Shown here piece by piece: positions 308-28,472 of a stretch of DNA of 32,318 nt. The notes under the pieces are model-generated. The model was not told where the DNA came from and made no database searches. It saw only the letters and a program-made list of their open reading frames with translations. This stretch comes from an uncultured archaeon (lineage in GTDB: Archaea; Asgardarchaeota; Lokiarchaeia; Sigyniarchaeales; SOKP01), in NCBI GenBank assembly GCA_964493715.1, contig CAZBPC010000032.1:1-32318 (forward strand), written 5' to 3'. Position numbers and translations under genes: made by a program. Numbering within the stretch: the stretch's first letter is position 1; each line of letters starts with the position of its first letter.

Positions 308-2035
308 GTGATTAAAAATATGGAAATGGAAAAAAAAAATATCGCGATAATAATCTTAGCGATTGCTTTAGTAGCATCTGGTGTTGGAAACATCATTCTT
401 GCTATGTCTATAAATCCAGCTCCTCAAAGAGAACAAATTCTAGTATTCGGAACTTCTGGTGGTATTCCGGATCTGGATCCTCATTATGCGTATGATTCAG
501 CTTCAATAGACGTGATTAATCAAGTCTGTGAAGGATTGATGAAAACAAATCTGACAGATCCTCAATATGGGCCTGTACCTAGTTTAGCAACTGATTTTCC
601 AGTTGTTACTTCTGACAGTTTAAATTACACCTTTACTCTTCGACAAGGTGTTATGTTTCATGATGGAACTCCATTTAACGCTGCCGCTGTTAAATGGAAT
701 TTTGATCGATTAAATCATTTTCTTAATTATTCTGAAAATGATTATCTACCAGCTCCATTTAATGTGTCATTAGATGCGACCACACCAGTATGTCAATTTG
801 GTGGACTTATTCAAACTGCTGATGGAAGTGGAAAACCTTTAATCAATCAAACTATCGTAGTTTCGCAATATGTAGTTAAATTAGTATTGAATGAACCAAA
901 AGGACCATTTTTAGCAATTCTTGCTTATGCGGGAATGTACTTTATGTCTCCAGCATCAACACCACCTCTACGCTATCTTGAGTCAGCAAATTCAAGACTA
1001 ATCGGTACTGGACCATTTATTTATGAATCATTCACTCCCGATGTTGATATCCGATTTAGAGCCAACCCTGTATATTGGCGTGGTGCTCCAAAATTACTAT
1101 CAATGGTTTGGGTACAAATTGAAGATACTAACACTAGAAATCAAGCTTTGCTTTCAAAAGAAGTTGATATCTTGGATGCTCCGGATCCCTCATTCTTGAC
1201 TCAATTTGATTCTGATTCAGCTATTACCCTATATCGAGGTGGAGCAACAACCAATACTGAATACGTAATGTTAGATTGTCAGTTTATGAGTGTTACCTTG
1301 AGAAAAGCAGCGTCATATGCATTTGATTACAATTATGTAATTCAAGAAATTTTGCAAGGACAGGCAGTAAGATTGGAAGGTCCTATTGCTGAACCAGTAC
1401 CCTTCTTTGCTACAGATTTAGACTATCCTGTATTAAATCTTTCATATGCTCGTCAAATTCTTGTAGATGCCGCCCTCGTAAGTGGTTCTGCTCCTATAAA
1501 CGATAATCCAGCGGACACATTTTGGCAGAGTCTGGCAGCATCTGGTAGTCCAGTTGCGACGTGGAATTATACTTGGAATACCGAAACTGACAGGAGAGGA
1601 GATATAGGAAATCTGTTTAAAGCTAATATGGCTTCAATAGGAATTTTTGTAGAAGTCATTGGTGAATCATGGGGAGAAGTTATTGGTAAACAGGTATCGC
1701 ATCCTGAACAATTAATGGCTTATTCAATGGGATGGCTTCAAGATTATAATGATCCTGAAAATTATATCACTCCATTCTTCTCAAATATCTCAGTCATTAA
1801 TGGTGAACGTTATTACGAGCCTGATGTTGAATTGCTAATAAGACAAGGAGCAGCAGAACCAAACCAAACCATAAGAGAAAGTATCTATTATCAGATTCAA
1901 CATACAATGGTTGAAAGAGATTTTCCATGCCTTTGGTTGGATAGTGGTAAAAATAACGACGCTTGGTTAAATGTCCTTCATGGTTGGGTACCAAATCAAG
2001 TCTCATTCATAAATTTCTACCCCTGTTATTTCTAG
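308..2035 (+). CDS. dppA: Peptide/oligopeptide ABC transporter substrate-binding protein (family 5, DppA/OppA-like) with N-terminal membrane anchor; real start probably ATG 320 or 326
   Basis: Hydrophobic N-terminus (KKNIAIIILAIALVASG); family-5 motifs LDPHYAYD, YTFTLRQGVMFHDGTPFNAAAVKWNFDR, IGTGPF, GW..DYNDP; lies upstream of dppBCDF. Confidence 0.93.
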   Translation: MIKNMEMEKKNIAIIILAIALVASGVGNIILAMSINPAPQREQILVFGTSGGIPDLDPHYAYDSASIDVINQVCEGLMKTNLTDPQYGPVPSLATDFPVVTSDSLNYTFTLRQGVMFHDGTPFNAAAVKWNFDRLNHFLNYSENDYLPAPFNVSLDATTPVCQFGGLIQTADGSGKPLINQTIVVSQYVVKLVLNEPKGPFLAILAYAGMYFMSPASTPPLRYLESANSRLIGTGPFIYESFTPDVDIRFRANPVYWRGAPKLLSMVWVQIEDTNTRNQALLSKEVDILDAPDPSFLTQFDSDSAITLYRGGATTNTEYVMLDCQFMSVTLRKAASYAFDYNYVIQEILQGQAVRLEGPIAEPVPFFATDLDYPVLNLSYARQILVDAALVSGSAPINDNPADTFWQSLAASGSPVATWNYTWNTETDRRGDIGNLFKANMASIGIFVEVIGESWGEVIGKQVSHPEQLMAYSMGWLQDYNDPENYITPFFSNISVINGERYYEPDVELLIRQGAAEPNQTIRESIYYQIQHTMVERDFPCLWLDSGKNNDAWLNVLHGWVPNQVSFINFYPCYF

Positions 2036-2065
2036 AGATTTTAAGATATGAGTAAAAATTTATTT

Positions 2066-2125
2066 AAATCTTTTTTTTCTTATTTACTTAGTATTCAAAT
2101 ATTTCTTTCTTTTATCAAATTTTAA
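2066..2125 (+). terminator. Oligo-T tract downstream of dppA, archaeal-type terminator candidate
   Basis: T-runs (cttttttttct, tttctttcttttt) 30-90 nt after the stop; weak evidence in AT-rich DNA. Confidence 0.35.
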
Positions 2126-2520
2126 TGGTAGAAAGTTAAATATAATGCTTTTTTTCTCAACTATCCTTTTTGTGATTTTCTCTCTAATGATATTAATTTC
2201 TATCTTTATCATAATTTGAATTCCATCGCCGATTAACGCGATTTAAATCATGATTTTAGGTGTGCCATAATCGAGTACAATTTAGGAAATTGTTTCGGGA
2301 GTATTTCGCTATAATTTTATTTAAAGTTCTATAAAAGAACTTAGTATTAATTAATTGCTTTTATCATGTATACTAAATTTAATAAGATTTTTAACTAAAA
2401 AAAAAAATAATAAACATATATTATATCTCAATTAAATTAATCTATTAATCACAATATCAAAATTTTTAATATTTAAATAATTCTTCACCTTAAATTAATA
2501 ATCTATTTAGTTGATAAAAA

Positions 2521-2982
2521 ATGGAGAATATTAAATGGCTAAGGTTAAGTGCTTTGGGTTGCTTTTTGCTAATATTTGGCTCTACTATTGGAACCTATAT
2601 TTTTAACATGCTATGGATTCCTAGAGTATTTAATCTTACATCAGAAATAATACATTCATTTACTTCTATATTTGAATTAACAAGTTATTTCGTACTTGGA
2701 GGAGGTGTGATTATCCTGATAAGTCTTATTTTTATTGTATCGAACCATATTAGGATTGGAATTGCTGTTATGTTAATTGGTTTAGTAATAGCTTTATTGG
2801 CAATGCTTTTATACTTATTCGGAGCATTTGAAGCTGCCTCGGCTTATACAATGGCAAGCGAAAAATTAATAGTATTTTTACCTCTTCTAACCATAAACTT
2901 TACTTTTGAAGTAGTCGGACTCATTTTAATTTTTCTCAGTAGAATAAAACTCGCCGAACAACATATACTTCAATTTGCGTAA
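2521..2982 (+). CDS. Hypothetical membrane protein, about 4 TM helices
   Basis: 153 aa ORF with ATG start and four long hydrophobic segments; no recognised motif. Confidence 0.7.
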   Translation: MENIKWLRLSALGCFLLIFGSTIGTYIFNMLWIPRVFNLTSEIIHSFTSIFELTSYFVLGGGVIILISLIFIVSNHIRIGIAVMLIGLVIALLAMLLYLFGAFEAASAYTMASEKLIVFLPLLTINFTFEVVGLILIFLSRIKLAEQHILQFA

Positions 2983-3463
2983 ATTTTTTTATCTACTCTG
3001 ACCTTTTTTTTTAAAATTTATTTTCTTCACCAAAAAATAATAATTTGAGTAAGATATTATAATTTTAAGATTAAGTATGTGAATTATCAAAAAAATATAT
3101 TAGTATATTTTAGCTCTATTTGAAAAATTATATAAAAATTGAATTAAAAATAATCAAATTGAAATGAAATTAGATCATAAATTCATAAAAATGGGTCTTA
3201 TATGGAAAAAAGAAATAAATTATCCCAAAATTATGCATTACGATTTTTATGATAAAAAATAGATATTTTGTTGAAAAAGTTGTTTGGTCCTCTCTTAATT
3301 TACAAGGACTTTATTGAGATCTTTACTAACAACATAAAACTGTTAGCTTATTACAGAGATCGGTTAATTAAATCATTAATTAGTTAAGAAATAGTGGTAT
3401 AATTAATAAGTGATCAAATACTAAATTATTTATCTTAACTCATATTAATATAAAATTAGATTT

Positions 3464-3928
3464 ATGACTCTTAAAATTGTTATCAGTAGACAAGGTAATT
3501 TTATACTAAGTATATTGTTGATTTATTTTGTATTTTTTGGTTACATCTCTAATGTATATTATAAATTTGTCAATTTAAGACTTATATTTTTATATCAAGT
3601 ATTATTTAATCCTGCATCGTATTTTTCTATCATCATCTTAATAATAATTATATTTATTATGGCATTTAGAGAGGATTATTTTCAATATGCATTAAGAAAT
3701 GCAATATGGTTAATACCAATTATAATTGGAATCTCTTTTTTATGGTATTGGATGATATATGGATTTAATATTTTTGTCATTGGAATATTTTTTGCAACAA
3801 TAGATGGATATTTAACAATTTTAACCTTACTAGGAGTTAATTTCCTTACGGCATTATTTGCATCATATTTGAAATTAAGATATTTAGAATATACTAAAAA
3901 ATTAGAATTAGTAAAAAGTTTGGATTAG
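3464..3928 (+). CDS. Hypothetical 4-TM membrane protein leading the dppBCDF unit
   Basis: 154 aa, four hydrophobic segments, 30 nt upstream of dppB on the same strand. Confidence 0.75.
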   Translation: MTLKIVISRQGNFILSILLIYFVFFGYISNVYYKFVNLRLIFLYQVLFNPASYFSIIILIIIIFIMAFREDYFQYALRNAIWLIPIIIGISFLWYWMIYGFNIFVIGIFFATIDGYLTILTLLGVNFLTALFASYLKLRYLEYTKKLELVKSLD

Positions 3929-3958
3929 TTTAGTTAAAAGAAAAAGGGAAAATATAAT

Positions 3959-4999
3959 ATGGCAAACGTAATTAAATATATGGTTAAAAGATTGATACAG
4001 ATGATTCCAGTTTTATTTGGGGTTTTAACTTTAGTTTTTATTCTAACAAAATTTTTCCCTTATAATCCAGCAATTGCATATCTTCCCACTCAGGGTTATA
4101 CAGAAGAGCAATTACACGCAATGGAACACCAGCTTGGTCTGGATCAACCTATAATTTTACAATACTTTCTATATTTGAGAAATTTATTTACGGGAGACTG
4201 GGGGAAATCATTACAAATATCCCCGGGATCTGATGTATGGCCATTGGTGATGCAAAAGTTTCCTCGTACTATAGAGCTTACTGTCTTATCAATGATAATA
4301 GCCTCTGTAGTAGGAATTAAAGCGGGTGTAATTTCTGCAAAGCATAGAAATAAAATTCAAGATACAACAGTAAGAGGGTTTGCTCTTTTAGGAGTTTCAA
4401 TTCCTGTTTTTTGGTTAGGAATGCTTATGCAGTATTTTTTATCATATCAACTCAAGCAAATTAATTCACCTTTCTTTTTCCCGACGCAAGGATTTGCAAC
4501 TTCTTGGTATAATAAATTAGACCCTATCACTGGATTTAGATTAATTGATACATTAATCACTGGAAATTTATATTATTTTGTTGATTATGTATGGCATTTA
4601 TTTTTGCCAGTTATGGCTTTATCATTTATTACAATTGCAAGTATTACAAGACAAACTCGTTCAAGTATGTTAGAAGTCTTAGAGCAAGATTATATAAGGA
4701 CAGCTAGAGCTAAAGGGGCCAAAGAAAGAGATGTGATCCACACCCATGCTTTAAAAAATGCGTTAATACCAACAGTAACTATAATTGGATTAAATATTGG
4801 AGCATTACTTGGTGGAGCTGTATTAACTGAAACCACTTTTAATTTAGATGGAATGGGACAATTATTAGTAACAGCCTTAAATCGTTATGATTATTATGTA
4901 TTAAATGCTTGTGTATTTTTAATTGCAGTCATTTTTGTTGTGGCAAACCTTATCATGGATTTATTATATGCTTATCTTGATCCTCGCATAGCATATTAA
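3959..4999 (+). CDS. dppB: Peptide ABC transporter permease DppB/OppB
   Basis: LGLDQP..QY..YL..L.TGDWG.S, SIPVFWLG, EAA-loop region RSSMLEVLEQDYIRTARAKG, C-terminal YAYLDPRI. Confidence 0.96.
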   Translation: MANVIKYMVKRLIQMIPVLFGVLTLVFILTKFFPYNPAIAYLPTQGYTEEQLHAMEHQLGLDQPIILQYFLYLRNLFTGDWGKSLQISPGSDVWPLVMQKFPRTIELTVLSMIIASVVGIKAGVISAKHRNKIQDTTVRGFALLGVSIPVFWLGMLMQYFLSYQLKQINSPFFFPTQGFATSWYNKLDPITGFRLIDTLITGNLYYFVDYVWHLFLPVMALSFITIASITRQTRSSMLEVLEQDYIRTARAKGAKERDVIHTHALKNALIPTVTIIGLNIGALLGGAVLTETTFNLDGMGQLLVTALNRYDYYVLNACVFLIAVIFVVANLIMDLLYAYLDPRIAY

Positions 5000-5058
5000 A
5001 AAACTGATGTTAATTTAAAATAAATATATAAATTAAAAATAAATTGTGAAAAAGAAAA

Positions 5059-6084
5059 ATGGTTGAACAAAAAGCAATCCGAGAACAACCGGAAAGTAGG
5101 ATTGAACTTGAAAAAGAAGAAAAGCCAAAGAACAAAGTACTCACCGGAACACTGAATTGGATTATAAATAATATTAAATTTCTATTAATCCCTGGATACA
5201 TTTCAGAAGATTTAATGGAAAGACAAATTGAATATGAGAAAACCAAAAGCCAGAGGAAATTCATTACTCGATTTAAATCTGTTTTGACATTAATTGGTAT
5301 TACCTTGATGTTTATTATCATTTCATTTGCTGTATTTGCTCCTTGGTTATCTCCTTATACAAGGTACTTTTTGACGACACCACAATATGGAAGTTGGAGT
5401 CCTCCTTCTCCAACGCATTTACTGGGAACAGGAGATGCAGGCGCTGATGTGTTAGGGAGAATTATTTGGGGTGCGAGAACCTCATTAACTGTTGCATTAC
5501 CTGCTTTGGTTATATCTGTATTAGGAGGTTGTGTGATAGGTATCATTGCTTCTTATTACGGTGGATGGATTGATTCAGTTCTTATGAGAATTGTCGATAT
5601 TATGCTAGCATTTCCAGGACTTGTATTAGTCCTAGTTTTTATTGCAATTTGGGGACGTAGATTAGAGTATTTTATATTAGCCTATGGGATATTAGGTATG
5701 GCAGGTTATTCTCGTATTATTAGAGGATCTGTTCTTCAAACAAAGAACTTGCCATACATTGATGCTGCTAGAGTTTCAGGTGCCTCTAATGTTAGAATCA
5801 TGTTCAGACATATATTCCCTAATGTTATTCAGCCTATTATTGTTGCTTTTACATTTGATATAGGAGGTATAATCCTGAGTTTAGCGGGATTGAGTTTTCT
5901 TGGATTTGCGGATCCAACACTAATAGAATGGGGGTATGATATATCAAAAGCTAGAGTACAATTTTACACAGCACCATGGGCGGCAGTGTTTCCAGGATTG
6001 ATGATTATGATAACGGTATTAGCCTTTATGTTAGTAGGAGATGGACTTCGAGATGCTTTAGATCCAAGAATGAAAAATTTATAG
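5059..6084 (+). CDS. dppC: Peptide ABC transporter permease DppC/OppC with charged N-terminal extension
   Basis: HLLGT..G.DV..R..WGARTSL, YIDAARVSGAS..RIMFRHIFPN, GDGLRDALDPR. Confidence 0.96.
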   Translation: MVEQKAIREQPESRIELEKEEKPKNKVLTGTLNWIINNIKFLLIPGYISEDLMERQIEYEKTKSQRKFITRFKSVLTLIGITLMFIIISFAVFAPWLSPYTRYFLTTPQYGSWSPPSPTHLLGTGDAGADVLGRIIWGARTSLTVALPALVISVLGGCVIGIIASYYGGWIDSVLMRIVDIMLAFPGLVLVLVFIAIWGRRLEYFILAYGILGMAGYSRIIRGSVLQTKNLPYIDAARVSGASNVRIMFRHIFPNVIQPIIVAFTFDIGGIILSLAGLSFLGFADPTLIEWGYDISKARVQFYTAPWAAVFPGLMIMITVLAFMLVGDGLRDALDPRMKNL

Positions 6085-6122
6085 ACAAAACTAAACTAAA
6101 CTTTACGGGGTTAAAAATAAAT

Positions 6123-7382
6123 TTGAGATCAGATAGTGAAAAAGAAAATATATTTAACGCAAATTCTTTAACCAAAAGTAATAATGAATTAATTAAAATA
6201 AAAAATCTAAAAACCCAATTTTTTACAGAAGAGGGTGTTGTAAAAGCTGTAGATGGGGTCTCATTTGCTATTCTAAAAAATGAAGTACTTGGACTTGTAG
6301 GAGAGACTGGATGTGGGAAATCAGTCACAGCACTTTCAATAATTGGACTTGTAAGAGCTCCAGGAAAGATTATTGATGGAGAGATAGATTTTAACGGAAT
6401 TAATCTTTTAGATTTACCAGAAAAGGAAATGCGAGACATTAGAGGTAAGGATATCACTATGATATTCCAAGATCCCTTAAACTCATTAAATCCAGTTATG
6501 AAAGTTGGAACCCAAATTAAAGAAGTATTTTTATTACATCAAAAGGAAGAAATGAATTTACTTCTCGATGAAGAAAAATTAGAACATGGAAATAAAATCA
6601 AAAAATATGAAGAGCTAACACAAACTCTTAAAGATGAGAAAGATCAACTGACTAAAAAAGAAATAAATGACTATGAAAAAGAAATTAAAAAGTTAAAAGA
6701 AGAAACTAAGCACCAACAAACTTTGAATAACATTATTGAAAGTAAATCTATTAAAGTGATAGAAGAGGTTGGCATGCCAGACGCTCAAGGAATATTGGAA
6801 AGATATCCTCATGAATTAAGTGGTGGAATGAGACAACGTGTGATGATTGCTATGGCTCTCTCTTGTAATCCACAATTATTGATTGCAGATGAACCAACAA
6901 CAGCTTTAGATGTTACTATTCAAGCTCAGATTCTTGATCTTATGAAAGATTTAAAGAAAAAATTTAAAACATCAATTTTAATGATAACTCATGATTTAGG
7001 AATAATAGCAGATTTGTGTGATCGAGTTGCGGTTATGTATAGTGGTAATATTATAGAATATGCCACAGCAGAAAATTTATTTAAAAATCCAAGACATCCG
7101 TATACTCGGGGATTGATTTCAGCAATTCCAACTCTGGAGAAGAAGGATAAAAAACTACAGTCTATTAGAGGGTCTGTTCCAAATTTAATATATCCTCCTT
7201 CAGGATGTCGATTTCATCCAAGATGCGATGAGAGATTGGAAATTTGTGACAAAGTACGACCAACTTTTACTGAGATTGGTGACAAATATTTTGTGGCATG
7301 TCATTTATATGATCCAAAATATAATGATTCTCCAAAATATGATTGGAGTAAGGGTGAAATTGAATTATCTAAAAAAGTATAA
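6123..7382 (+). CDS. dppD: Peptide ABC transporter ATPase DppD/OppD with coiled-coil insertion; start re-called to in-frame TTG 6123 (the track start at 5976 overlaps dppC)
   Basis: Walker [10 protein letters not shown]-loop MIFQDP, signature [12 protein letters not shown], Walker [13 protein letters not shown]-loop ITHD, C-terminal GCRFHPRC...C...CH; start position uncertain. Confidence 0.93.
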
Positions 7383-7413
7383 AATTGAAATTAAAAGAAA
7401 TTATTTAAAATAA

Positions 7414-8484
7414 ATGATGACAGCAAGCGATAATAAAATAGAATTTGATAAGTATGATACGGATAATGTAGTATTATCAGTGAGAAATCTAAAGACTTAT
7501 TATCCTATCACGGCAGGATTTTTCAAGAAAATAATTGGATACGTTAAAGCCGTGGATGGGGTATCTTTTGATTTACATAAAAGAGAAACATTAGGATTAG
7601 TGGGAGAAAGTGGGTGTGGTAAAACTACAATCGCAAATACTATTCTAAATCTGGTTCGTCCAACCGAAGGAGCTATATTATTTAAGGGGAAAAAAATAAT
7701 TGAAGCACGTAAAATGGCTGAATATGAAAAAGCTGTAAGAAAAAAAATTCAAATGGTATTTCAAGATCCCGATTCCTCATTGAATCCGAGATGGAAAGTT
7801 GTTAATATTATTGGAGAACCACTTAGGTTACTTGAAGGTATAAAATCTGGAAGAAAATTAAGAACAAGAGTGCTAGAACTTTTGAAAACTGTATCCATGA
7901 AAAGAGAACATTTAGATAGATATCCCCATGAGTTTTCAGGCGGGCAAAAACAAAGAATTGTTATTGCCAGAGCATTGGCATGTAATCCTGAGTTAATTAT
8001 ATTAGATGAACCAACTTCCGCACTTGATGTCTCTGTTCAAGCTCAGATCTTGAATTTATTAAATGATCTTCAAAACCAATTTGATTTATCTTACTTGTTC
8101 ATTACCCACGATTTAAGTGTAGTACAACACATAGCGGATAGAATTGAAGTTATGTATCTTGGTAAATTTGTCGAGGGAGGAAAAATAGAAGAGGTTTTTT
8201 ATCATCCCACTCATCCTTATACGAGAGCATTATTATCCGCCAGACCCACATTTGATCCCAGTTCGAAACGAAATCGCATCATCTTGGAAGGTGATGTGCC
8301 TAGTCCAATAAATCCTCCTTTAGGATGTACATTTCACCCTCGATGCTTTGAAGTAAATAAGCATGAAGGATGCGGAATTGACGCTCCAAAAAGAGTCGAT
8401 CTTGGTGGAGATCATTATATGTATTGCAATCCCCTATCTGATAAAAAAAAATCTTATGAAGGAATGAGTTATATTTCTGATTAA
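7414..8484 (+). CDS. dppF: Peptide ABC transporter ATPase DppF/OppF
   Basis: GESGCGKT, YPHEFSGGQKQR, ILDEPTSALD, HPYTRALL, GCTFHPRC. Confidence 0.96.
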   Translation: MMTASDNKIEFDKYDTDNVVLSVRNLKTYYPITAGFFKKIIGYVKAVDGVSFDLHKRETLGLVGESGCGKTTIANTILNLVRPTEGAILFKGKKIIEARKMAEYEKAVRKKIQMVFQDPDSSLNPRWKVVNIIGEPLRLLEGIKSGRKLRTRVLELLKTVSMKREHLDRYPHEFSGGQKQRIVIARALACNPELIILDEPTSALDVSVQAQILNLLNDLQNQFDLSYLFITHDLSVVQHIADRIEVMYLGKFVEGGKIEEVFYHPTHPYTRALLSARPTFDPSSKRNRIILEGDVPSPINPPLGCTFHPRCFEVNKHEGCGIDAPKRVDLGGDHYMYCNPLSDKKKSYEGMSYISD

Positions 8485-21013: not shown

Positions 21014-22519
21014 TCATTTCAATTTCTTTAATAAAATTATTAAAAATTTCCAGATTTTTTCCACAGATCGTATATTCAATCGTTCGTCAGGAGAATGTCC
21101 TCCCTTTATATTTGGGCCAATTGAAATCATTTGCATATTAGGGTAATATTTCGAGAAATAAGCACATTCCAAACCAGCATGAATTGCTTTGATATGTACT
21201 TCTTGGTCAAATAATTCTCTATATATTTCTCTTGCTTCAGAGGTTAATTTTGAACTAAAATCTGGATCCCAGCTTGGATAATCCGTTACAATTGTTAAAT
21301 CTTTGTCAAAATTAAAAATGTTGAATAATGTGATTATTTTTTCAAAAATCACTTCCTTACAATATTCAGTCAAGCTTCGAGTACTTATTTTGATTTTAAT
21401 TGAATTAGGTTTTGTTTTAACAACAGCGAAATTATCTGAAGTATGTACTAGTTCTGGAATTTTTGGATGTATAGATAAAGGACCATTAGGCATTAAGTAG
21501 AATAAATCAAGCAATTTATCTTTTAAATCATTCTCTAAAACAAGGTGGTTTAATTTCTCTGGATCTTCCTTACAAATAATCATCAAATTCGAATCAATCC
21601 CTTCATATAAGGATTTTATTTTAGGCTTGTAGAATTCAATTTTTTCCATAATTTCCCGAAATTCTTCTTTTTTAACATAAAAAATAGCATGTGCCTCTCG
21701 GGGAATTGCATTTGTTAAATTTCCTCCGGTTATAACCCCTACATATATTGTATATTCTTTATTTAGCTTCCACATTATCTCTGCGAGAATTTTATTTGCA
21801 TTCCCTCTTCTTTTAATAATGTCTGTTCCAGAATGCCCTCCTATTAAACCCATTACATCTAATCTTATTAGAATAATTTGATCCTTCATTTTCTCAACCG
21901 AAACGCGTTTGTCTTTGATTTCAACCTTGAAGACTCGCCCACCAGCACAACCAATGGTAAATTCGTCATCTTGCTCAGAATCAAGGTTTATTAAATATTT
22001 ACCTTTAATGAGATTCAAATCCATCTTTGAAGCCCCCGAAAGCCCTCTTTCTTCATCAACAGTAAATAACAAATCCAAGTGTAACGTTCCAAGGTTCAAC
22101 TGACCATTATATATTCTCTTCATGATTGCTAATTGATAAGCTATGCCTACTCCATTATCTGCTCCAAGAGTTGTACCTTCAGCGGTTAACCATTTTTCAT
22201 CGTCAATAGCTATCAAATTTAGTCTTAATGGATCTTTTGCAAAATCATGATCGATCTCATCGTTTTTTTCGCATACCATATCCATATGGCTTTGCAAGAC
22301 TACTCTTAATGGCTCACCTTCCGTCTTTGTTTGAGGAGGAACTCTTACAACAATATTTCCAATTTGATCTGTCTGATGTTCAAATTTAAACTTTAAAGCT
22401 TCTTCTTTAATAAAGGCTCTAATCAACTCTTCTTTTCTGGAACACCGAGGTATTTTAGAAATTTGAAATAAATAATCCCAAAATTCTTGGGGTTCACCTA
22501 AATCCTTCAAATTCTCCAT
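21014..22519 (-). CDS. pepD: Aminoacyl-histidine / Cys-Gly dipeptidase PepD (M20C)
   Basis: LQSHMDMVCEKN, GTTLGADNG.G, FTVDEE.GL.GA, INLDSE, GGHSG, IHAGLEC, GHSPDE. Confidence 0.95.
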   Translation of the reverse strand: MENLKDLGEPQEFWDYLFQISKIPRCSRKEELIRAFIKEEALKFKFEHQTDQIGNIVVRVPPQTKTEGEPLRVVLQSHMDMVCEKNDEIDHDFAKDPLRLNLIAIDDEKWLTAEGTTLGADNGVGIAYQLAIMKRIYNGQLNLGTLHLDLLFTVDEERGLSGASKMDLNLIKGKYLINLDSEQDDEFTIGCAGGRVFKVEIKDKRVSVEKMKDQIILIRLDVMGLIGGHSGTDIIKRRGNANKILAEIMWKLNKEYTIYVGVITGGNLTNAIPREAHAIFYVKKEEFREIMEKIEFYKPKIKSLYEGIDSNLMIICKEDPEKLNHLVLENDLKDKLLDLFYLMPNGPLSIHPKIPELVHTSDNFAVVKTKPNSIKIKISTRSLTEYCKEVIFEKIITLFNIFNFDKDLTIVTDYPSWDPDFSSKLTSEAREIYRELFDQEVHIKAIHAGLECAYFSKYYPNMQMISIGPNIKGGHSPDERLNIRSVEKIWKFLIILLKKLK

Positions 22520-22616: not shown

Positions 22617-23741
22617 ATGAGTAGTTGGAAAGATTTGTATTCGGAAGTTAAAAAACGCAAGATGGAAGCACTGGATAAAAAAGAAGTAGTAAATGCAGTT
22701 GAAAAATATGGAAAAATTCTTGCTATTAAGGGTCGATATGAAAAACCAGAGAAAGTTGTTGATCACATGTATGCTGCTAAACATGATACCATTAGACCAC
22801 ATGATATTATGAAATATAATCTAAATGATTATGATGTGGTACTAATTGGGTGTCCTGGTGATGAGATTCCTCATTCCGCATTTCCAAAGATAAGCGAATA
22901 CGTGAATTTAAATGGAGGATGGGTACTAACCACTGATTGGGCGATAAAGCATATTATTGAAGTAATTTTTCCAGGATTCATTAGATGGAATGGTGACAAA
23001 ACAGCGGATGCTGTGGTAAGCTGTCAAATTCTAGAACCGAATCACCCATTTCTTGAAGGGGTTTTAACAGAAATCCAACAAGACAAATGGACAGCAAAAA
23101 CAACAGGGAATACAAAGAAATCCGAGTTTCGGTGGTGGTTGGAAAACCGTAGTTTTCCCATTCAAATTCTGAACCCCACCGCAGTCACTGTTCTAATTGA
23201 CTCTTGGGAAATAAAGAAAAAGTGGGGAGAATCTCCTGTTTTATGTTATTTTGATTATGGAAAAACCGGTGGTCGTATCATTCATTTAATTTCTCACACG
23301 CATTTACAAAAAGGTGGTCAAAAAGGAAAATATGCCTCAGCTTTAATAATGACAAACATCCTTGATGAAAAAGTCTCCAGAAAAATGGGGTTATCAAAGA
23401 AACCCGTATCAGGTTATGTCTCAAATTGGGAAGAAACCCCCTCTCAATCATACGCCGATCCAAGTACACCATGGCAATCTCCTGATGAACAAAACCAATT
23501 TGTAACGCCTTCTGTTTCAGAATTTGGATTAACTGGGACAGCTCAAATTATTGAAGTCGACGTCAACGATACCAACTTTTCATATGCTAGTAAATGTACT
23601 TATTGTAATTATGATTTTACTGATTATAGCGGGAAAATATATAAATGTCAAGCTTGCGGTGCTTATTATCATGAAAATTGCATGAACATCCAAATCAATG
23701 AAGGAATATGCAAAAACTGTGGAAAAATCCTTCTTTGGTAG
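22617..23741 (+). CDS. Class I GATase-like (GIFT/DUF4159-like) domain fused via an S/P/T-rich linker to a C-terminal C4HC3 RING/PHD-like finger
   Basis: L..YDVVLIGCPG...EYV..NGG.VLTTDW flavodoxin-like pattern; C-x2-C-x13-C-x2-C-x4-H-x2-C-x9-C-x2-C starting at 23595. Confidence 0.6.
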   Translation: MSSWKDLYSEVKKRKMEALDKKEVVNAVEKYGKILAIKGRYEKPEKVVDHMYAAKHDTIRPHDIMKYNLNDYDVVLIGCPGDEIPHSAFPKISEYVNLNGGWVLTTDWAIKHIIEVIFPGFIRWNGDKTADAVVSCQILEPNHPFLEGVLTEIQQDKWTAKTTGNTKKSEFRWWLENRSFPIQILNPTAVTVLIDSWEIKKKWGESPVLCYFDYGKTGGRIIHLISHTHLQKGGQKGKYASALIMTNILDEKVSRKMGLSKKPVSGYVSNWEETPSQSYADPSTPWQSPDEQNQFVTPSVSEFGLTGTAQIIEVDVNDTNFSYASKCTYCNYDFTDYSGKIYKCQACGAYYHENCMNIQINEGICKNCGKILLW

Positions 23742-24284: not shown

Positions 24285-24785
24285 CTATTTTTTTAATACT
24301 TTGGAAAATGGTTTGAAATTAGGATCTTGATTTTTAATAGCTATAAACAATAAAATAGCTGTTAATAAACCACCAATCACGCCTCCATAAAATCCTGAGT
24401 CAAACCACCACCAAGCTTCTTCAATTTCTAAAGAAATACCAAAAATCAAACCTTCTAGAATTGAAAGGATTAAAACAATAAAAGAAGCATAAAATGCATA
24501 ATTTAGATATTTATTAGATGATATTTTATCGGGGAATCTTAAAGCTTGAATGCAGATAAAGGTACAAAAGAGTAGGAGAAATCCAGATATTGTTATTGGT
24601 ATACTATAAATGCTATTCCATGCATCTAGACCACCATAAATATACACTCCAAGATAATAATTTGACCCATTCCACCCACCAAAATCCAAAGCAAGAAGTA
24701 ATATTCCACCAACCGCGCTAGTTATTAAAGATCCAACAAAATAGATTGATAAATTATCATTTCTTTCTGATGACATTGTTATCAC
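24285..24785 (-). CDS. Hypothetical 4-TM membrane protein
   Basis: Four hydrophobic helices, G/W/Y-rich first loop, WWWFDSGFYGG before TM4. Confidence 0.7.
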   Translation of the reverse strand: MITMSSERNDNLSIYFVGSLITSAVGGILLLALDFGGWNGSNYYLGVYIYGGLDAWNSIYSIPITISGFLLLFCTFICIQALRFPDKISSNKYLNYAFYASFIVLILSILEGLIFGISLEIEEAWWWFDSGFYGGVIGGLLTAILLFIAIKNQDPNFKPFSKVLKK

Positions 24786-24895
24786 TATATATTTTTAAAT
24801 TATAGTTAGGTTTTAAAGGTAAATAAATTGTTTTCTTTTTAATTATTATTGCAAATAGTATTTATAAATATACAATAAAGGTCAATTGATTTATA

Positions 24896-26014
24896 TTGAG
24901 AATTCGAAAGATTTGGGATTATAAAATTATAGGTCAATTTTTAGGATTAGAAATCGGAGATTACACCTTTAATAATAAACAAGAAATTATGGCTTTTAGC
25001 AAATCAGGTAAAATCTACACATTCTCTTTAGATGGTAAATTATTGTTCGATGTTGAAATAACTGAAAATTCTCCTATTTGGAAAATTATAATTGATGAAG
25101 TAGATGAAAATTGTGTTCAAAAAGTAATAATTGGTGGATTAGATGGATTGTTAAGAATCTTTGATCTAAATGCCTCTTTAACGTTAGATCCAATATGGAT
25201 CCATAAATTTGGATCTTCAATCAGTGGTATATTACTAAAAGATATAAATGGAAATGGAAAAAAGGAAATTGTTGCTTATTCATTAGACAAGAGTCTAAGA
25301 GTTTTATCTTTACTTGATGGAGCATTGATTTGGGGTCAATTATTTGAGGATGGGATTAGTGATGCTATTTTTATCAAAGATGAGGATAATCAAGATGACA
25401 ATGTCATAGTTGCCGTGGGAAATGATGGAACAATTCGATCCTTTAATTGTATAAACGGAAATCTTCGTGGTTTTATGAAATTTACTGATAAGGTGAGGAC
25501 TCTAACATTATTTAACATTTCAGATAAACAAGTGATTGTATGTGGCGGAGATGATAAAACGGCACATTTTCTTGATAAGAATTTGAAACTTGAAATTGAC
25601 ACCTTGAAATTTAACGATCTTGTATGGAAATTGAAATTAATAAGATATATGAATGATAATTTTTTACTAATTTCAACCTATTCATTCGATTTTCTAGATA
25701 ACTCGATTCCTATTAATGAACGACAGTTTTCTTCAAAACTCACCTGTCTTGATAAAAATTTAGATGTTAAATGGGAATTAATTGACACTAACGTCGAAGT
25801 TATTGCTCCATACTTTTCTGAATCAATGAATTTCATCATCACGGGTACTACAAAAGGCGAGATTATCTTTTTAGATATCATTGAAGGCAAAATCTTAGCT
25901 ACTTATAATACAAATTCATGTGTTAATGATATAAAAACTGATTCCCACTCAAATTTTTTCGTTTCATGTCATGATGATGGGTCAATAAACGCGTATTTTA
26001 TTGATGATCTTTAA
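24896..26014 (+). CDS. Beta-propeller protein with FG-GAP/WD40-like blades (ITFG2/BBS2-like pattern), no signal peptide
   Basis: Repeats of about 45 aa: GDYTFNNKQEIMAFSKSGKIY, DEVDENCVQKVIIGGLDGLLRIF, DINGNGKKEIVAYSLDKSLRVL, DEDNQDDNVIVAVGNDGTIRSF, IVCGGDDKTAHF, FVSCHDDGSINAY. Confidence 0.8.
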   Translation: MRIRKIWDYKIIGQFLGLEIGDYTFNNKQEIMAFSKSGKIYTFSLDGKLLFDVEITENSPIWKIIIDEVDENCVQKVIIGGLDGLLRIFDLNASLTLDPIWIHKFGSSISGILLKDINGNGKKEIVAYSLDKSLRVLSLLDGALIWGQLFEDGISDAIFIKDEDNQDDNVIVAVGNDGTIRSFNCINGNLRGFMKFTDKVRTLTLFNISDKQVIVCGGDDKTAHFLDKNLKLEIDTLKFNDLVWKLKLIRYMNDNFLLISTYSFDFLDNSIPINERQFSSKLTCLDKNLDVKWELIDTNVEVIAPYFSESMNFIITGTTKGEIIFLDIIEGKILATYNTNSCVNDIKTDSHSNFFVSCHDDGSINAYFIDDL

Positions 26015-26048
26015 TTATTTCATGCAATTACCTAATTGAGGAAGACTC

Positions 26049-26798
26049 ATGTGTCGAATGTTTTTTCAATGTTCACCAGAACCTTTTCAGATTGACCTAG
26101 TATTCTTAAAAAAATTTGTAGCATCATGTCATCTGCACTACTTAAGGAGATATAATATCTATGGACGTCATAGATTGGGGTGGGGTTTTGCATACGTTCC
26201 TGAAAATAATGATAAAACCTTGATAATAAAAAGAGATATAACTCCAATTTACCATTCAGACTGGAAAAATCTATCAACCATCAAAACTAGATTTCTACTA
26301 GTTCACGCAAGAAAAACAAAACCATGGCATAAAAATTTTAAGAACATACATCCCATTAATATAGGCGAAAACTACTTAATTGTTCATAATGGCATCATTA
26401 AAAAATTCCCTTCAAGAAAATTAAGCGATACAAAACTTGAAAATATTATAAAATCGACTCAGCTTGATACAAGAATTTATTTATGTCATATAATTGATAG
26501 ACTTAAAACTGGTTATGATTTAAAGAGTGTTTTAGAATCTCTATTTCAAGAAATTAGTATAGGATCAAGCGCAAATGCTTTTCTCTTTAATTCACAAGAA
26601 TGTCATGTGATAACTCACCACAAAAACAATTATAAGGGCAGAAATCACACGCTTTTCATAAAAAAAGAAAATAACATCTTAAATGTTTGCACTACACCTA
26701 GTTTAAAATATGCCAGAGAAATTGAGAACAATTCCTTGATTAGTATAAATATAAATAATCTGAAATTAAAATTCGACAATTTAAATGCTCCGTATTAG
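26049..26798 (+). CDS. Class II (Ntn) glutamine amidotransferase-like protein (YafJ/EgtC/Dug3 type)
   Basis: N-terminal M-C-R-M-F with nucleophile Cys, H..GWG, LVHARK, N.HP, HNG.I oxyanion motif. Confidence 0.85.
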   Translation: MCRMFFQCSPEPFQIDLVFLKKFVASCHLHYLRRYNIYGRHRLGWGFAYVPENNDKTLIIKRDITPIYHSDWKNLSTIKTRFLLVHARKTKPWHKNFKNIHPINIGENYLIVHNGIIKKFPSRKLSDTKLENIIKSTQLDTRIYLCHIIDRLKTGYDLKSVLESLFQEISIGSSANAFLFNSQECHVITHHKNNYKGRNHTLFIKKENNILNVCTTPSLKYAREIENNSLISININNLKLKFDNLNAPY

Positions 26799-26868
26799 AT
26801 TCAATAATTTCAGAATAATATCGGGGTATAAATAATTCAATCAATAAAAATGGTGACTGATGCATTGA

Positions 26869-27843
26869 ATGAGAAAAATGAAGTCAATTTCATGGTTTTT
26901 AGTAATCTCTTATTTTGATCAAGTAATAGGTCCCTCAATTCTCTATTGTAATAAAGAACTTAATGAAATTAAGCATATCGAATTAAATAAACTCCTAGAT
27001 TTTAATTCCCGGGAAAATTGTATCATTTTAGCTAATGATAAATATCAAACAATTAATTACAGCTTTTTAATTAAATCAGAGGAAGCCAGGGGAGGTTTTG
27101 AACAAATACTCCTCTCTTACATCATTAAGGAGGAGGATATCAAAGTCGAATATCTTGATATCTTTAAATTTTTAAAATCAAAACAGCCTATCCTCCAAAA
27201 TCTAGCTAATGAGCTAAAAAAATTGAGATGGTTGCCAAAACTATTAACTATAAAAAATAAACCGTCTGACACAAGTATTATAAAGATGACCTCCCAAAGA
27301 GATCAATATAACTTTCTGGGATTATATAATAAGTATTGCAACTTATTGTTTCCAGAAGTTACTCGATTTGAAAATGAAGAATGGCAAGGGATAATGGTCG
27401 AATGTCCCTATTGCAATAAACAAAGGAAAATCAAAATCCCTCTTAGCAAAATAAATAAAAATTCTGAATTAACAAGCATATTAATACCAAAATTTAAAGT
27501 GTGTGAACATTCCTTTCTATTTTTAGTAAATAGTGCATTAACTCCGATAAAATATGAATACATCGATATTATCGTTTCTGACATTGAAACAGAGGATTTG
27601 GATATACAAGAGATTGATTTACTACTAGCTGAAAATATTCATGAATATTTGAAAAAGATAGGAATAAATACACCACTAATTCCAAGAAAATTAATTAAAT
27701 ATCTTTATAATATATTGAATTTAAAAGTTAACAAGAGTTACCTATACTATTTATGTGAGATTGTCAAAGAATATTTTAATATAGAGATCATTTGGACAAA
27801 AACACAAGTTTTAGACGAATTAGAGGAATTATGGGGCTATTAA
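26869..27843 (+). CDS. Longin/uDENN-like domain + CxxC...CxH zinc domain + helical tail
   Basis: N-terminal ISYFDQVIGP (uDENN F-D-x-x-x-G-P), beta-beta-alpha-beta-beta-beta-alpha-alpha pattern, loop FLIKSEEARGG; later CPYC...IP...CEHSF. Confidence 0.7.
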   Translation: MRKMKSISWFLVISYFDQVIGPSILYCNKELNEIKHIELNKLLDFNSRENCIILANDKYQTINYSFLIKSEEARGGFEQILLSYIIKEEDIKVEYLDIFKFLKSKQPILQNLANELKKLRWLPKLLTIKNKPSDTSIIKMTSQRDQYNFLGLYNKYCNLLFPEVTRFENEEWQGIMVECPYCNKQRKIKIPLSKINKNSELTSILIPKFKVCEHSFLFLVNSALTPIKYEYIDIIVSDIETEDLDIQEIDLLLAENIHEYLKKIGINTPLIPRKLIKYLYNILNLKVNKSYLYYLCEIVKEYFNIEIIWTKTQVLDELEELWGY

Positions 27844-27848
27844 AAAAG

Positions 27849-28472
27849 TTAGATAATAATATTTTTCTTTTCTTGTTTGAGAATAGGTGGATTTAATAAG
27901 GTATTATTTTCTAAAATCAATTTCAACATCGTTCGAAAAGAGAGAACAACACCTTCTCCTTCGGTTGCTACAGATTCAGTAATTTCCAAATTATAATATT
28001 TGGAAGCTCTTATTGCTGCTAGGAAACTATTCTTTTCTATTTTTGGAGATATATCTTGTTTATTAAAAACAATTACTTTAGGGATGAACAGAAAATCTTT
28101 ACTCAAATAACCCTCTAATTCTTTCCAAGAAATAATATTACGCATGAATGCATCTTTCTCAGAATCAACAATAAAAATAATGCCATCAAGATTTCGTATT
28201 GTATCTGGTCTTGTAATGGCGTAAAAATCTTGTCCTGTTGTAGAATAAACATGGGTTTTTAGAGAGTACCTGCGATTTTTGAAAAACAATAATAAATAAT
28301 CAAAATACAAAGTTCTACCTGAAGTCGTCTCAATACTTAAAAATTCATTCACAACCTTTTCCTTATAATAATCTGACAAGTATTTCATCGTTGTAGTCTT
28401 ACCTGACAACGCTGGACCGGCATACACGATTTTACTATGAATAGTTGCCTCGACATTATTAATAATCATCAA
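27849..28472 (-). CDS. mglA: MglA-type small GTPase (start TTG 28472 or ATG 28469)
   Basis: KIVYAGPALSGKTT (G1), SIETTSGRTLYFD (switch I with MglA R-T), YSTTGQ.FY (G3 lacking Asp as in MglA), DGIIF.VDS, NKQD (G4), SVA..G.GV (G5). Confidence 0.88.
   Translation of the reverse strand: MMIINNVEATIHSKIVYAGPALSGKTTTMKYLSDYYKEKVVNEFLSIETTSGRTLYFDYLLLFFKNRRYSLKTHVYSTTGQDFYAITRPDTIRNLDGIIFIVDSEKDAFMRNIISWKELEGYLSKDFLFIPKVIVFNKQDISPKIEKNSFLAAIRASKYYNLEITESVATEGEGVVLSFRTMLKLILENNTLLNPPILKQEKKNIII

Follow-up and report, generated by a model that had tools for sequence, protein, structure and literature searches.

Here, we analyze four adjacent genes of an uncultured lokiarchaeial archaeon, which code for a beta-propeller, an amidotransferase-like protein (hereafter the amidohydrolase), a longin-domain protein of 324 amino acids (aa) that we call LONG324, and a small GTPase. 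The genes lie in positions 1 to 32,318 of contig CAZBPC010000032.1 (assembly GCA_964493715.1), and this whole stretch of 32,318 nucleotides (nt) is referred to as the window. Comparison with related genomes revealed that the locus consists of three separable modules: the propeller, the amidohydrolase, and a cassette formed by LONG324 and the GTPase. The explanation we favour, to which we give a little better than an even chance, is a composite of these three modules in which the cassette pairs a regulator, LONG324, most likely a GTPase-activating protein (GAP), with a switch of the MglA type. The original prediction had taken all four genes for one proto nutrient-sensing unit, which our results do not support. 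The four open reading frames (ORFs) are:

24896-26014, + strand: propeller, ORF of 372 aa with a TTG start
26049-26798, + strand: amidotransferase-like protein (amidohydrolase), ORF of 249 aa
26869-27843, + strand: LONG324, ORF of 324 aa, or 321 aa from a conserved ATG at 26878
27849-28472, - strand: small GTPase, ORF of 207 aa from a TTG, or 206 aa from an ATG at 28469

As originally described, three co-directional genes converge on the GTPase gene, and the ORF list agrees with the coordinates and gaps given for them: 34 nt separate the propeller from the amidohydrolase and 70 nt the amidohydrolase from LONG324, and the convergent stop codons of LONG324 and the GTPase are 5 nt apart. In LONG324 orthologues the start is the second ATG (26878), which brings the upstream spacer to 79 nt. 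The DNA of the window has a low G+C content (~30%), and relatives of its proteins were found in Lokiarchaeota/Promethearchaeota records only.

Linkage of the four genes in related genomes

We compared the locus across 25 genomes of the genus (G000 to G024, the window belonging to G000) and metagenome contigs, mapping eleven window proteins onto each locus; a wider sample comprised 108 other genomes of the family. Genomes, loci and contigs are given by their G, L and C numbers. The gene order shared across the genus is M20 peptidase, zinc-finger protein, TM166, propeller, amidohydrolase, TM103, PfkB kinase, cupin and ribosomal protein S19, with LONG324 and the GTPase, where present, between the amidohydrolase and TM103. 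The states of the locus in the 25 genomes were as follows:

Cassette present: 5 of 25 (G000, G001, G006, G022, G023; LONG324 broken in G023)
Amidohydrolase followed by TM103, no cassette: 12 of 25 (G002, G004, G005, G007, G008, G011, G012, G015, G016, G020, G021, G024)
Unrelated 6-kilobase (kb) insert in the slot: 1 of 25 (G014)
Propeller followed by TM103, no amidohydrolase: 5 of 25 (G010, G013, G017, G018, G019)
Locus state not settled, incomplete genomes: 2 of 25 (G003, G009)

All four genes are thus found together in five genomes, one of them with a broken longin gene. Propeller and amidohydrolase occur without the cassette in 13 genomes, and the propeller occurs alone in five. The insert of G014 (L053, G014:C131, positions 1109-6764) carries ORFs of 752, 1006 and 110 aa between the amidohydrolase and TM103; since the slot is filled there with different cargo, it appears to be a hotspot for variable genes. 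We also built a tree from the flanking genes (24 rows, leaving out G014, whose PfkB gene is partial, and rows without all three genes). On this tree, loss of the amidohydrolase needs at least two changes, with the sister genomes G021 and G013 differing in state, and the cassette state needs one or two changes, one of them forced.

Outside the genus the genes are unlinked. Single-copy orthologues of the propeller were identified in 72 of the 108 other family genomes; the 34 genomes of the genus g12 include 23 with the propeller and none (0/34) with the amidohydrolase. Wherever a non-genus genome has both genes, they lie on different contigs (4/4), and we did not find the propeller in any of ten amidohydrolase loci from other genera or of divergent type. 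The amidohydrolase adjoins the propeller only in this genus. Its non-genus neighbours are of another kind. Directly upstream, on the same strand, four scanned loci (among L110-L113 and L116) have a gene for a major facilitator superfamily (MFS) transporter of 425-427 aa, and a fifth locus has the same layout, its transporter gene not having been scanned. The remaining loci have a gene for an S33 hydrolase, a dienelactone hydrolase or a flavin adenine dinucleotide (FAD) oxidoreductase upstream, with M20 peptidase genes further upstream in two of them. The recurrent transporter neighbour hints that the substrate of the amidohydrolase may be an imported small molecule.

The spacer between the amidohydrolase and LONG324 contains a candidate promoter:

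26827-26834, + strand: TATA-like element TATAAATA, with GG in front of it, 51 nt upstream of the conserved LONG324 ATG

The element is kept in all seven aligned orthologous spacers, including that of L071, whose LONG324 is only 60% identical and whose spacer has otherwise diverged. Its conservation points to a separate LONG324 transcript that would start from its own promoter. We did not find a conserved TATA-like element in the propeller-amidohydrolase spacers, which measure 30-46 nt and are often purine-rich before the ATG; these two genes are probably co-transcribed. A scan for bacterial-type signals gave 34 promoter-like sites (32.9 expected) and one terminator-like site (1.3 expected), and is uninformative here, archaeal promoters being outside its scope.

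Compared over window positions 24285-27843, the locus L070, on a metagenome contig, is a mosaic: its propeller is 80-81% identical to that of a cassette-less clade (G002, G004, G008, G011), and its amidohydrolase and LONG324 are 84-89% and 83-89% identical to those of the cassette clade (G001, G006, G022, L067). This mixture of clades implies a recombination joint between propeller and amidohydrolase. The amidohydrolase of the window is 92% identical to the copy in L066 only, and 58-65% identical to every other copy of the genus. Because LONG324 and the GTPase are 88-92% identical to their counterparts in G001, G006 and G022, this suggests either a second joint, between the amidohydrolase and the cassette, or fast evolution of the amidohydrolase allele in the window.

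These data bear directly on the proposal that a propeller scaffold, a glutamine-binding amidohydrolase, a longin GAP and a GTPase constitute an amino-acid-sensing unit, a proto version of KICSTOR-GATOR1-Rag. The tight spacing of three co-directional genes that converge on the GTPase is in keeping with such a unit, and the amidohydrolase is found upstream of every LONG324 locus (7/7 metagenome loci extending upstream, and all genome loci). The L070 mosaic, in which amidohydrolase and LONG324 share a clade to which the propeller does not belong, likewise indicates that the former two can travel together. The fold matches of the propeller include WDR41 (Z 31.9), which is the propeller subunit of the longin GAP complex C9orf72-SMCR8, but at rank 39 among tied eight-bladed propellers. 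Against this stand the 13 genomes in which propeller and amidohydrolase lack the cassette and the five with the propeller alone, the separate contigs outside the genus, and the transporter, S33, dienelactone-hydrolase, M20-peptidase and FAD-oxidoreductase genes next to the amidohydrolase there. The conserved TATA-like element between the second and third genes and the unrelated insert in the slot of G014 argue in the same direction, as do the propeller, which is eight-bladed and scores under the ITFG2, BBS and FG-GAP cut-offs, and the GTPase, which is of MglA type and not of Rag type. The original prediction had itself named unlinked genes in related genomes and a promoter at 26800-26868 as observations that would speak against it, and this is largely what we found. 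We consider a single sensing unit highly improbable.

LONG324 and its neighbour GTPase

LONG324 matched none of the families in Pfam or NCBIfam, and its orthologues, with identities of 50-90%, come from Lokiarchaeota/Promethearchaeota records only. Its AlphaFold2 model (predicted local distance difference test, pLDDT, 72.2) has three parts:

26890-27363, + strand: longin domain, residues 8-165; strand and helix order of the model b-b-a-b-b-b-a-a, with matches to the fold
27376-27564, + strand: predicted zinc ribbon, residues 170-232; C179, C182, C212 and H214 invariant in 15/15 orthologues; five model strands
27604-27837, + strand: C-terminal four-helix part, residues 246-323; model helices 246-264, 272-283, 289-303 and 310-323

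A Foldseek search with the longin domain returned chains of NPRL2-like GATOR1, Npr2, FLCN, Lst4 and a Loki longin with E values from 2.7e-5 to 7.8e-4. The best of them were NPRL2-like GATOR1 chains (2.7e-5), and the template modelling (TM) scores were 0.57 for the Loki longin 8yqg_B and 0.60 for the Lst4 longin. VIA-align gave the highest Z scores to FLCN (11.7 for 8dhb_J, root-mean-square deviation 3.2 over 137 aligned residues, and 11.5), followed by 8yqg_B, a solved lokiarchaeial longin (11.1), Lst4 (10.8), and NPRL2/NPRL3-like chains (10.4 for 9o5a_H, and 10.3). Two motifs accompany the fold. The first, G21-P22, sits between model strands 9-17 and 21-27 and is invariant in 15/15 orthologues and in all 25 sequences of a wider domain alignment. 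The second, R74-G75-G76, occupies the loop between strands 59-69 and 77-87 (strands 4 and 5) and is invariant in 15/15 orthologues, its arginine being retained in at least 90% of the wider alignment. According to PMC12290439, a GP motif beside a catalytic arginine is specific to one class of Asgard longins and to the GAP longins FLCN, NPRL2, SMCR8 and C9orf72; non-GAP longins have neither the GP motif nor the conserved arginine. Fold and motifs together support the assignment of the modelled longin domain to the folliculin/NPRL2 type of GAP longins, and in this respect the original view of the third gene as a GAP-like longin holds.

The Cys-Cys-Cys-His (CCCH) module is likely to bind zinc, judging from its invariant residues. 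It also opens many other lokiarchaeial proteins, and many paralogues match only residues ~167-250 of LONG324. Residues 252-322 are matched in other proteins as well, the tail being common to P0026-type proteins and to longer relatives of 441-477 aa. A protein atlas search with residues 166-324 gave a best score of 0.76, under the meaningful level. The 441-477-aa relatives have an extra middle domain of ~130 aa; a possible likeness of this domain to a DENN core was considered and set aside, Pfam finding nothing in those relatives. Tandem copies of the GP-type longin were observed in P0028 and in L092 (184-630 and 1483-1959), the first copy in L092 being without the conserved arginine.

In a phmmer search against the Protein Data Bank (PDB), the GTPase matched MglA of Thermus and Myxococcus with E values from 2.4e-24 (Thermus) to 1.8e-23, and the next match was Rab18, at 3.9e-4. 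In Pfam it matches Ras (28.8 bits) and Arf (28.1 bits), and we did not find any Gtr1_RagA match at E values up to 0.1. The protein has a conserved P-loop and NKxD motif, a switch-I arginine (R52), and Thr-Thr-Gly-Gln in place of Asp-x-x-Gly-Gln. The MglA family is known for a threonine that replaces the G3 aspartate, and accordingly the Thr-Thr-Gly-Gln aligns with Thr-Val-Pro-Gly-Gln of MglA, and R52 with its switch-I arginine. R52, G79 and Q80 are invariant across 25 GTPase sequences. An intrinsic switch-I arginine of MglA has been described (PMC10933270). By its sequence, then, the GTPase is of MglA type and not of Rag type: the original call of a small GTPase stands. No Robl_LC7 (MglB-type) match was found on the window contig (C32), out of 16 in the genome. 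Elsewhere in the same genome (G000:C11, positions 64607-68290), a paralogous MglA-like GTPase, 45% identical, is encoded less than 2 kb from a 339-aa Roadblock/LC7 ORF and another GTPase-like ORF, and this stretch may be a second regulator-GTPase neighbourhood.

The distribution of the two genes ties them to each other. Among the 25 genomes, the five with the cassette, and no others, have an orthologue of the GTPase (at least 70% identity). The remaining genus genomes have paralogues of 45-51% only, and G000 has such paralogues too, on contigs C7 and C11. G083 is a sixth genome with both LONG324 and the GTPase. On metagenome contigs, the GTPase follows LONG324 in 7/7 loci that reach past the 3' end of the latter, at LONG324 identities down to 60%, and protein records from contigs of equal length suggest that the pairing holds also at 51%. 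We conclude that LONG324 and the GTPase probably constitute a unit, which is a part of the original proposal that the data bear out.

It could be argued instead that the adjacency is a historical accident, and that LONG324 serves others among the dozens of GTPases encoded in the genome, or that its role does not involve GTPases. The identical phyletic pattern of both genes at the level of whole genomes counts against this, as does the persistence of the pair while LONG324 diverges to 51-60% identity. The two genes stay close together, with 5 nt between them in the window and 11-26 nt in those relatives that are intact, and comparison of the window with G001, G022 and G006 gives 88-92% identity for both genes, against 62-85% for the flanks. 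Moreover, the same class of longin occurs fused to GTPase domains: 14 of 41 cluster representatives of longin-domain relatives (5/17 and 9/24) have an Arf or Ras Pfam domain behind the longin. PMC10933270, on the other side, describes the GTPase genes of a cultured Loki strain as lying generally outside operons with longin or roadblock genes. We regard a purely accidental adjacency as unlikely on balance, though it is the most serious of the competing explanations.

Under the favoured explanation, the amidohydrolase would be an ordinary metabolic enzyme that, in this genus, ended up behind the propeller. The cassette, with a promoter of its own, would occupy a slot of variable content, flanked by the amidohydrolase and the gene of a small membrane protein. 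The longin domain of LONG324 would dock on the GTPase and control its nucleotide state, most likely by stimulating GTP hydrolysis, with the GP loop and R74 placed at the nucleotide pocket. Either R74 would supply the arginine, or LONG324 would position R52 and the glutamine of the GTPase, as MglB does on MglA. The zinc module and the helical tail might serve localisation or partner binding.

Several observations weigh against this explanation. Some of them concern the pairing and favour the accidental adjacency. Every LONG324 locus occupies one syntenic slot, so the pairing may stem from a single event and have been kept by inheritance alone, with which the one change forced on the tree is compatible. 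The genes are convergent, and so are not co-transcribed. Around four longer LONG324 relatives in other genera, no GTPase gene lies within 1.5 kb (0/4). G023 has an intact GTPase beside a broken LONG324 (one assembly, L044 and L074 being identical), which indicates that the former can persist on its own. Besides the frameshifts that spread it over three frames, the pseudogene (L044, G023:C35, positions 5890-7730) has an internal deletion and a single in-frame stop. Between it and the GTPase lies a further small ORF, helix-turn-helix repressor-like by eye.

Further support for the pair comes from a longin-GTPase fusion of 346-376 aa, which is encoded by most genomes of the genus that lack the cassette and whose best match in G000, G001, G006 and G022 is LONG324. 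Its GTPase domain, on the other hand, shares only 23% identity with the GTPase of the cassette. The cassette genomes are without this fusion, with the exception of G023, which has the fusion and the decayed LONG324. This complementary distribution is suggestive of a replacement of one by the other but is not taken as evidence for it, given that each state tracks its clade, that neither occurs in G003 or G010, and that the two GTPase domains are so dissimilar. The fusion (L029:6861-7901; counterparts in L031 and L035-L043) joins a longin of the GP/Arg type to a GTPase-like domain in which a P-loop and N-K-F-x-D are present. By eye this domain has no clear Asp-x-x-Gly-Gln switch-II motif, and it may be non-hydrolysing or otherwise unusual.

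Other observations concern the mode of action. We did not find any sequence-level match of LONG324 to the folliculin or NPR2 families in Pfam, NCBIfam or PDB profile searches. Profiles of LONG324 and of its longin domain gave chance-level matches only against the PDB, and a Pfam scan of 25 longin-domain relatives gave nothing significant, with Folliculin appearing once at E 0.12. R74 is no more than a candidate equivalent of the folliculin/NPRL2 arginine. The GTPase retains the intrinsic arginine of MglA, which leaves no obvious need for a GAP to supply an arginine finger, and LONG324 may act in the manner of MglB, positioning catalytic residues. Finally, TRAPP and SNARE longins reach Z scores of 9-9.9, and the GAP longins (11.7) are ahead of them by only ~2 units.

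LONG324 could accordingly partner the GTPase as something other than a GAP. Most longin and roadblock proteins act as exchange factors, platforms or effectors (TRAPP, Mon1-Ccz1, DENN, Ragulator), and longins of the TRAPP, SNARE, DENN and Mon1-Ccz1 groups also match LONG324, at Z 7.8-9.9. The GTPase has a catalytic arginine and glutamine of its own. Eukaryotic longin GAPs, moreover, are heterodimers (PMC12290439), and LONG324 has no gene for a second longin subunit close by. The top fold matches, however, are FLCN, Lst4, NPRL2/3 and the Loki longin, and the combination of GP motif and arginine is one that PMC12290439 reports in GAP longins and as missing from non-GAP longins. We therefore judge an exchange factor, platform or effector to be quite improbable. 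The narrowest form of the GAP hypothesis, in which LONG324 is a minimal single-chain GAP of the folliculin type with the MglA-family GTPase as its natural substrate, is doubtful, although somewhat less so.

The propeller, the amidohydrolase and the surrounding genes

The AlphaFold2 model of the propeller (pLDDT 91.8) has 32 strands, which make up eight blades. As originally stated, the protein has no signal peptide; we found no membrane segment either (maximum 19-residue Kyte-Doolittle mean 1.28). It passes the Pfam cut-offs of Beta-prop_CGLA (43.1 vs 26.8) and WD40 (33.6 vs 27), and falls below those of FG-GAP_3 (14.3 vs 26.9), Itfg2 (18.4 vs 27), BBS7 (22.2 vs 27) and BBS2_Mid (16.2 vs 27), the weak Itfg2, BBS7 and BBS2_Mid matches spanning residues 16-136. 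Eight-bladed chains head the fold lists of both Foldseek and VIA-align, the best matches (Z 31-35) being the designed Cake8/Tako8, then Rsa4/NLE1, Sqt1, YxaL, Cdc4/Fbw7 and BamB. The BBSome chain 6voa_B was found at Foldseek rank 30 (E 4.9e-14, TM 0.59), and no KICSTOR/ITFG2 chain is among the best 50 matches listed by either program, an absence from the list that does not amount to exclusion.

The FG-GAP propellers of the integrin-alpha type are seven-bladed. An FG-GAP, ITFG2 or BBS identity, as first proposed, was rejected on the basis of the Pfam scores under the cut-offs, the eight blades, and the generic WD40/PQQ-like matches. The profile search against ITFG2, BBS2 and generic PQQ/WD40 propellers that had been suggested as a check thus came out in favour of the last: the propeller is, as modelled, a generic soluble eight-bladed propeller of the WD40/PQQ-like kind. 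The blade motif read from the sequence, D-x7-E-I-V-x3-D-G/K-x-L-R, has no exact match in the propeller. A looser form is present in two blades (residues 67-87 and 116-135), and a D-G/K-x-L/I-R-like pentad in three copies plus two degenerate ones. The propeller resembles ITFG2 of KICSTOR and BBS2/BBS7 of the BBSome in being a soluble beta-propeller with weak, sub-threshold Pfam matches to them; in contrast to these, it scores under the curated cut-offs, its model is eight-bladed, and generic propellers match it best.

The amidohydrolase scores 31.4 bits with Pfam GATase_4 (cut-off 23). Its N-terminal Met-Cys, with Cys2 intact, and its His-Asn-Gly and Asp-Thr-Arg motifs are invariant in 20/20 orthologues. 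The His-Asn-Gly and Asp-Thr motifs align with the glutaminase domain of GlmS, although the alignment is weak (E 0.61); in GlmS, the Asn-Gly contributes to the oxyanion hole and the Asp binds the substrate. Given the conserved Met-Cys start and motifs, the protein is probably an active class-II N-terminal nucleophile (Ntn) amidohydrolase, and its original identification as an Ntn amidotransferase was well founded. With stand-alone class-II amidotransferase-like proteins (GATase_4; EgtC) it shares the GATase_4 match above cut-off, the N-terminal Cys and the His-Asn-Gly motif. It differs from EgtC in its weak score with the NCBIfam model of that family, 18.6 bits, far below the cut-off of 218.65.

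Two further features of the window bear on the context claimed for amino-acid sensing:

308-8484, strand not given: Opp/Dpp-type ATP-binding cassette (ABC) transporter
21014-22519, strand not given: M20 peptidase

The description of the window as rich in genes for peptide uptake and hydrolysis is loosely true, in that both are present, but unrelated housekeeping genes separate them. Also in the window, at 22617-23741, is a gene for a 374-aa protein whose C-terminus carries a cysteine-rich finger of C1/PHD-like type (C1_1 24.9 bits, just below the cut-off of 26.5); ribosomal genes apart, it is the best conserved of the neighbourhood, with identities of 69-95% in the genus. A 176-aa ORF at 20395-20925 matches the OST3/OST6 family (38.5 bits vs a cut-off of 27), a family of eukaryote-type oligosaccharyltransferase subunits.

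Comparison with known systems

Asgard longins with the GP motif have already been published (PMC12290439), as have longin-GTPase fusions and MglA-like GTPases in Loki genomes (PMC10933270; 10.1101/2024.02.28.582541). Our literature search did not find any publication in which a folliculin-type longin is matched with an MglA-type GTPase of Asgard archaea, which is not proof that none is in print. In PMC12290439 the partner GTPases of these longins are left open, with ArfR and Rag/Gtr named as possible, and the cassette provides a concrete, matched partner candidate for that question. According to PMC10933270, a GTPase of the cultured Loki strain can rarely be assigned its regulator by gene order, and Loki GTPase genes generally lie outside operons with longin or roadblock genes, so a matched LONG324-GTPase pair has some value. 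It is also testable: both proteins are small and soluble, R74, G21/P22 and R52 of the GTPase are targets for point mutants, and MglA-like paralogues from the same genome can serve as controls. If LONG324 is indeed a GAP for an MglA-type GTPase, the eukaryotic GAP longins (FLCN, GATOR1, C9orf72-SMCR8) would descend from archaeal regulators of MglA-like switches, with MglA-like switches regulated first and specificity for Rag and Arf arising later, and the cassette would offer the simplest natural pair for dissecting the mechanism of GP loop and arginine.

Like FLCN (which pairs with FNIP), NPRL2 (in GATOR1, with NPRL3) and SMCR8 (with C9orf72), LONG324 has the longin fold, the GP motif before strand 2 and the conserved arginine, and it is also associated with a small GTPase, here in the genome. 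Unlike them, it has no sequence-level family match and no partner longin gene nearby, and it carries the CCCH module and a short helical tail instead of a DENN or an NPRL2 C-terminal part. Its neighbour GTPase is of MglA type and not Rag or Arf, and its own role as a GAP is a prediction only.

LONG324 shares its motifs, and its Asgard longin nature, with the longins termed "Folliculin/SMCR8-type" in PMC12290439, and by sequence most likely falls into that published class. The paper gives no matched partner for the class, whereas LONG324 has a neighbour of the MglA family. With the MglA-MglB system of Myxococcus and Thermus, in which the GAP is a Roadblock dimer, the cassette has in common the GTPase family, the intrinsic arginine, the Thr-x-x-Gly-Gln motif and a regulator of related fold. 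The difference is that the neighbour in the window is a longin instead of a Roadblock protein, all 16 Robl_LC7 matches of the genome being on other contigs. Finally, the Asgard longin-GTPase fusions (PMC10933270) resemble the cassette in that its type of longin is found fused in 14/41 relatives and in the 346-376-aa paralogue, but here the two are separate, convergent genes, and the fused GTPase domain has diverged from the cassette GTPase to the 23% identity given above. The cassette is thus a probable regulator/switch pair of an already described kind, and not a proto nutrient-sensing complex.

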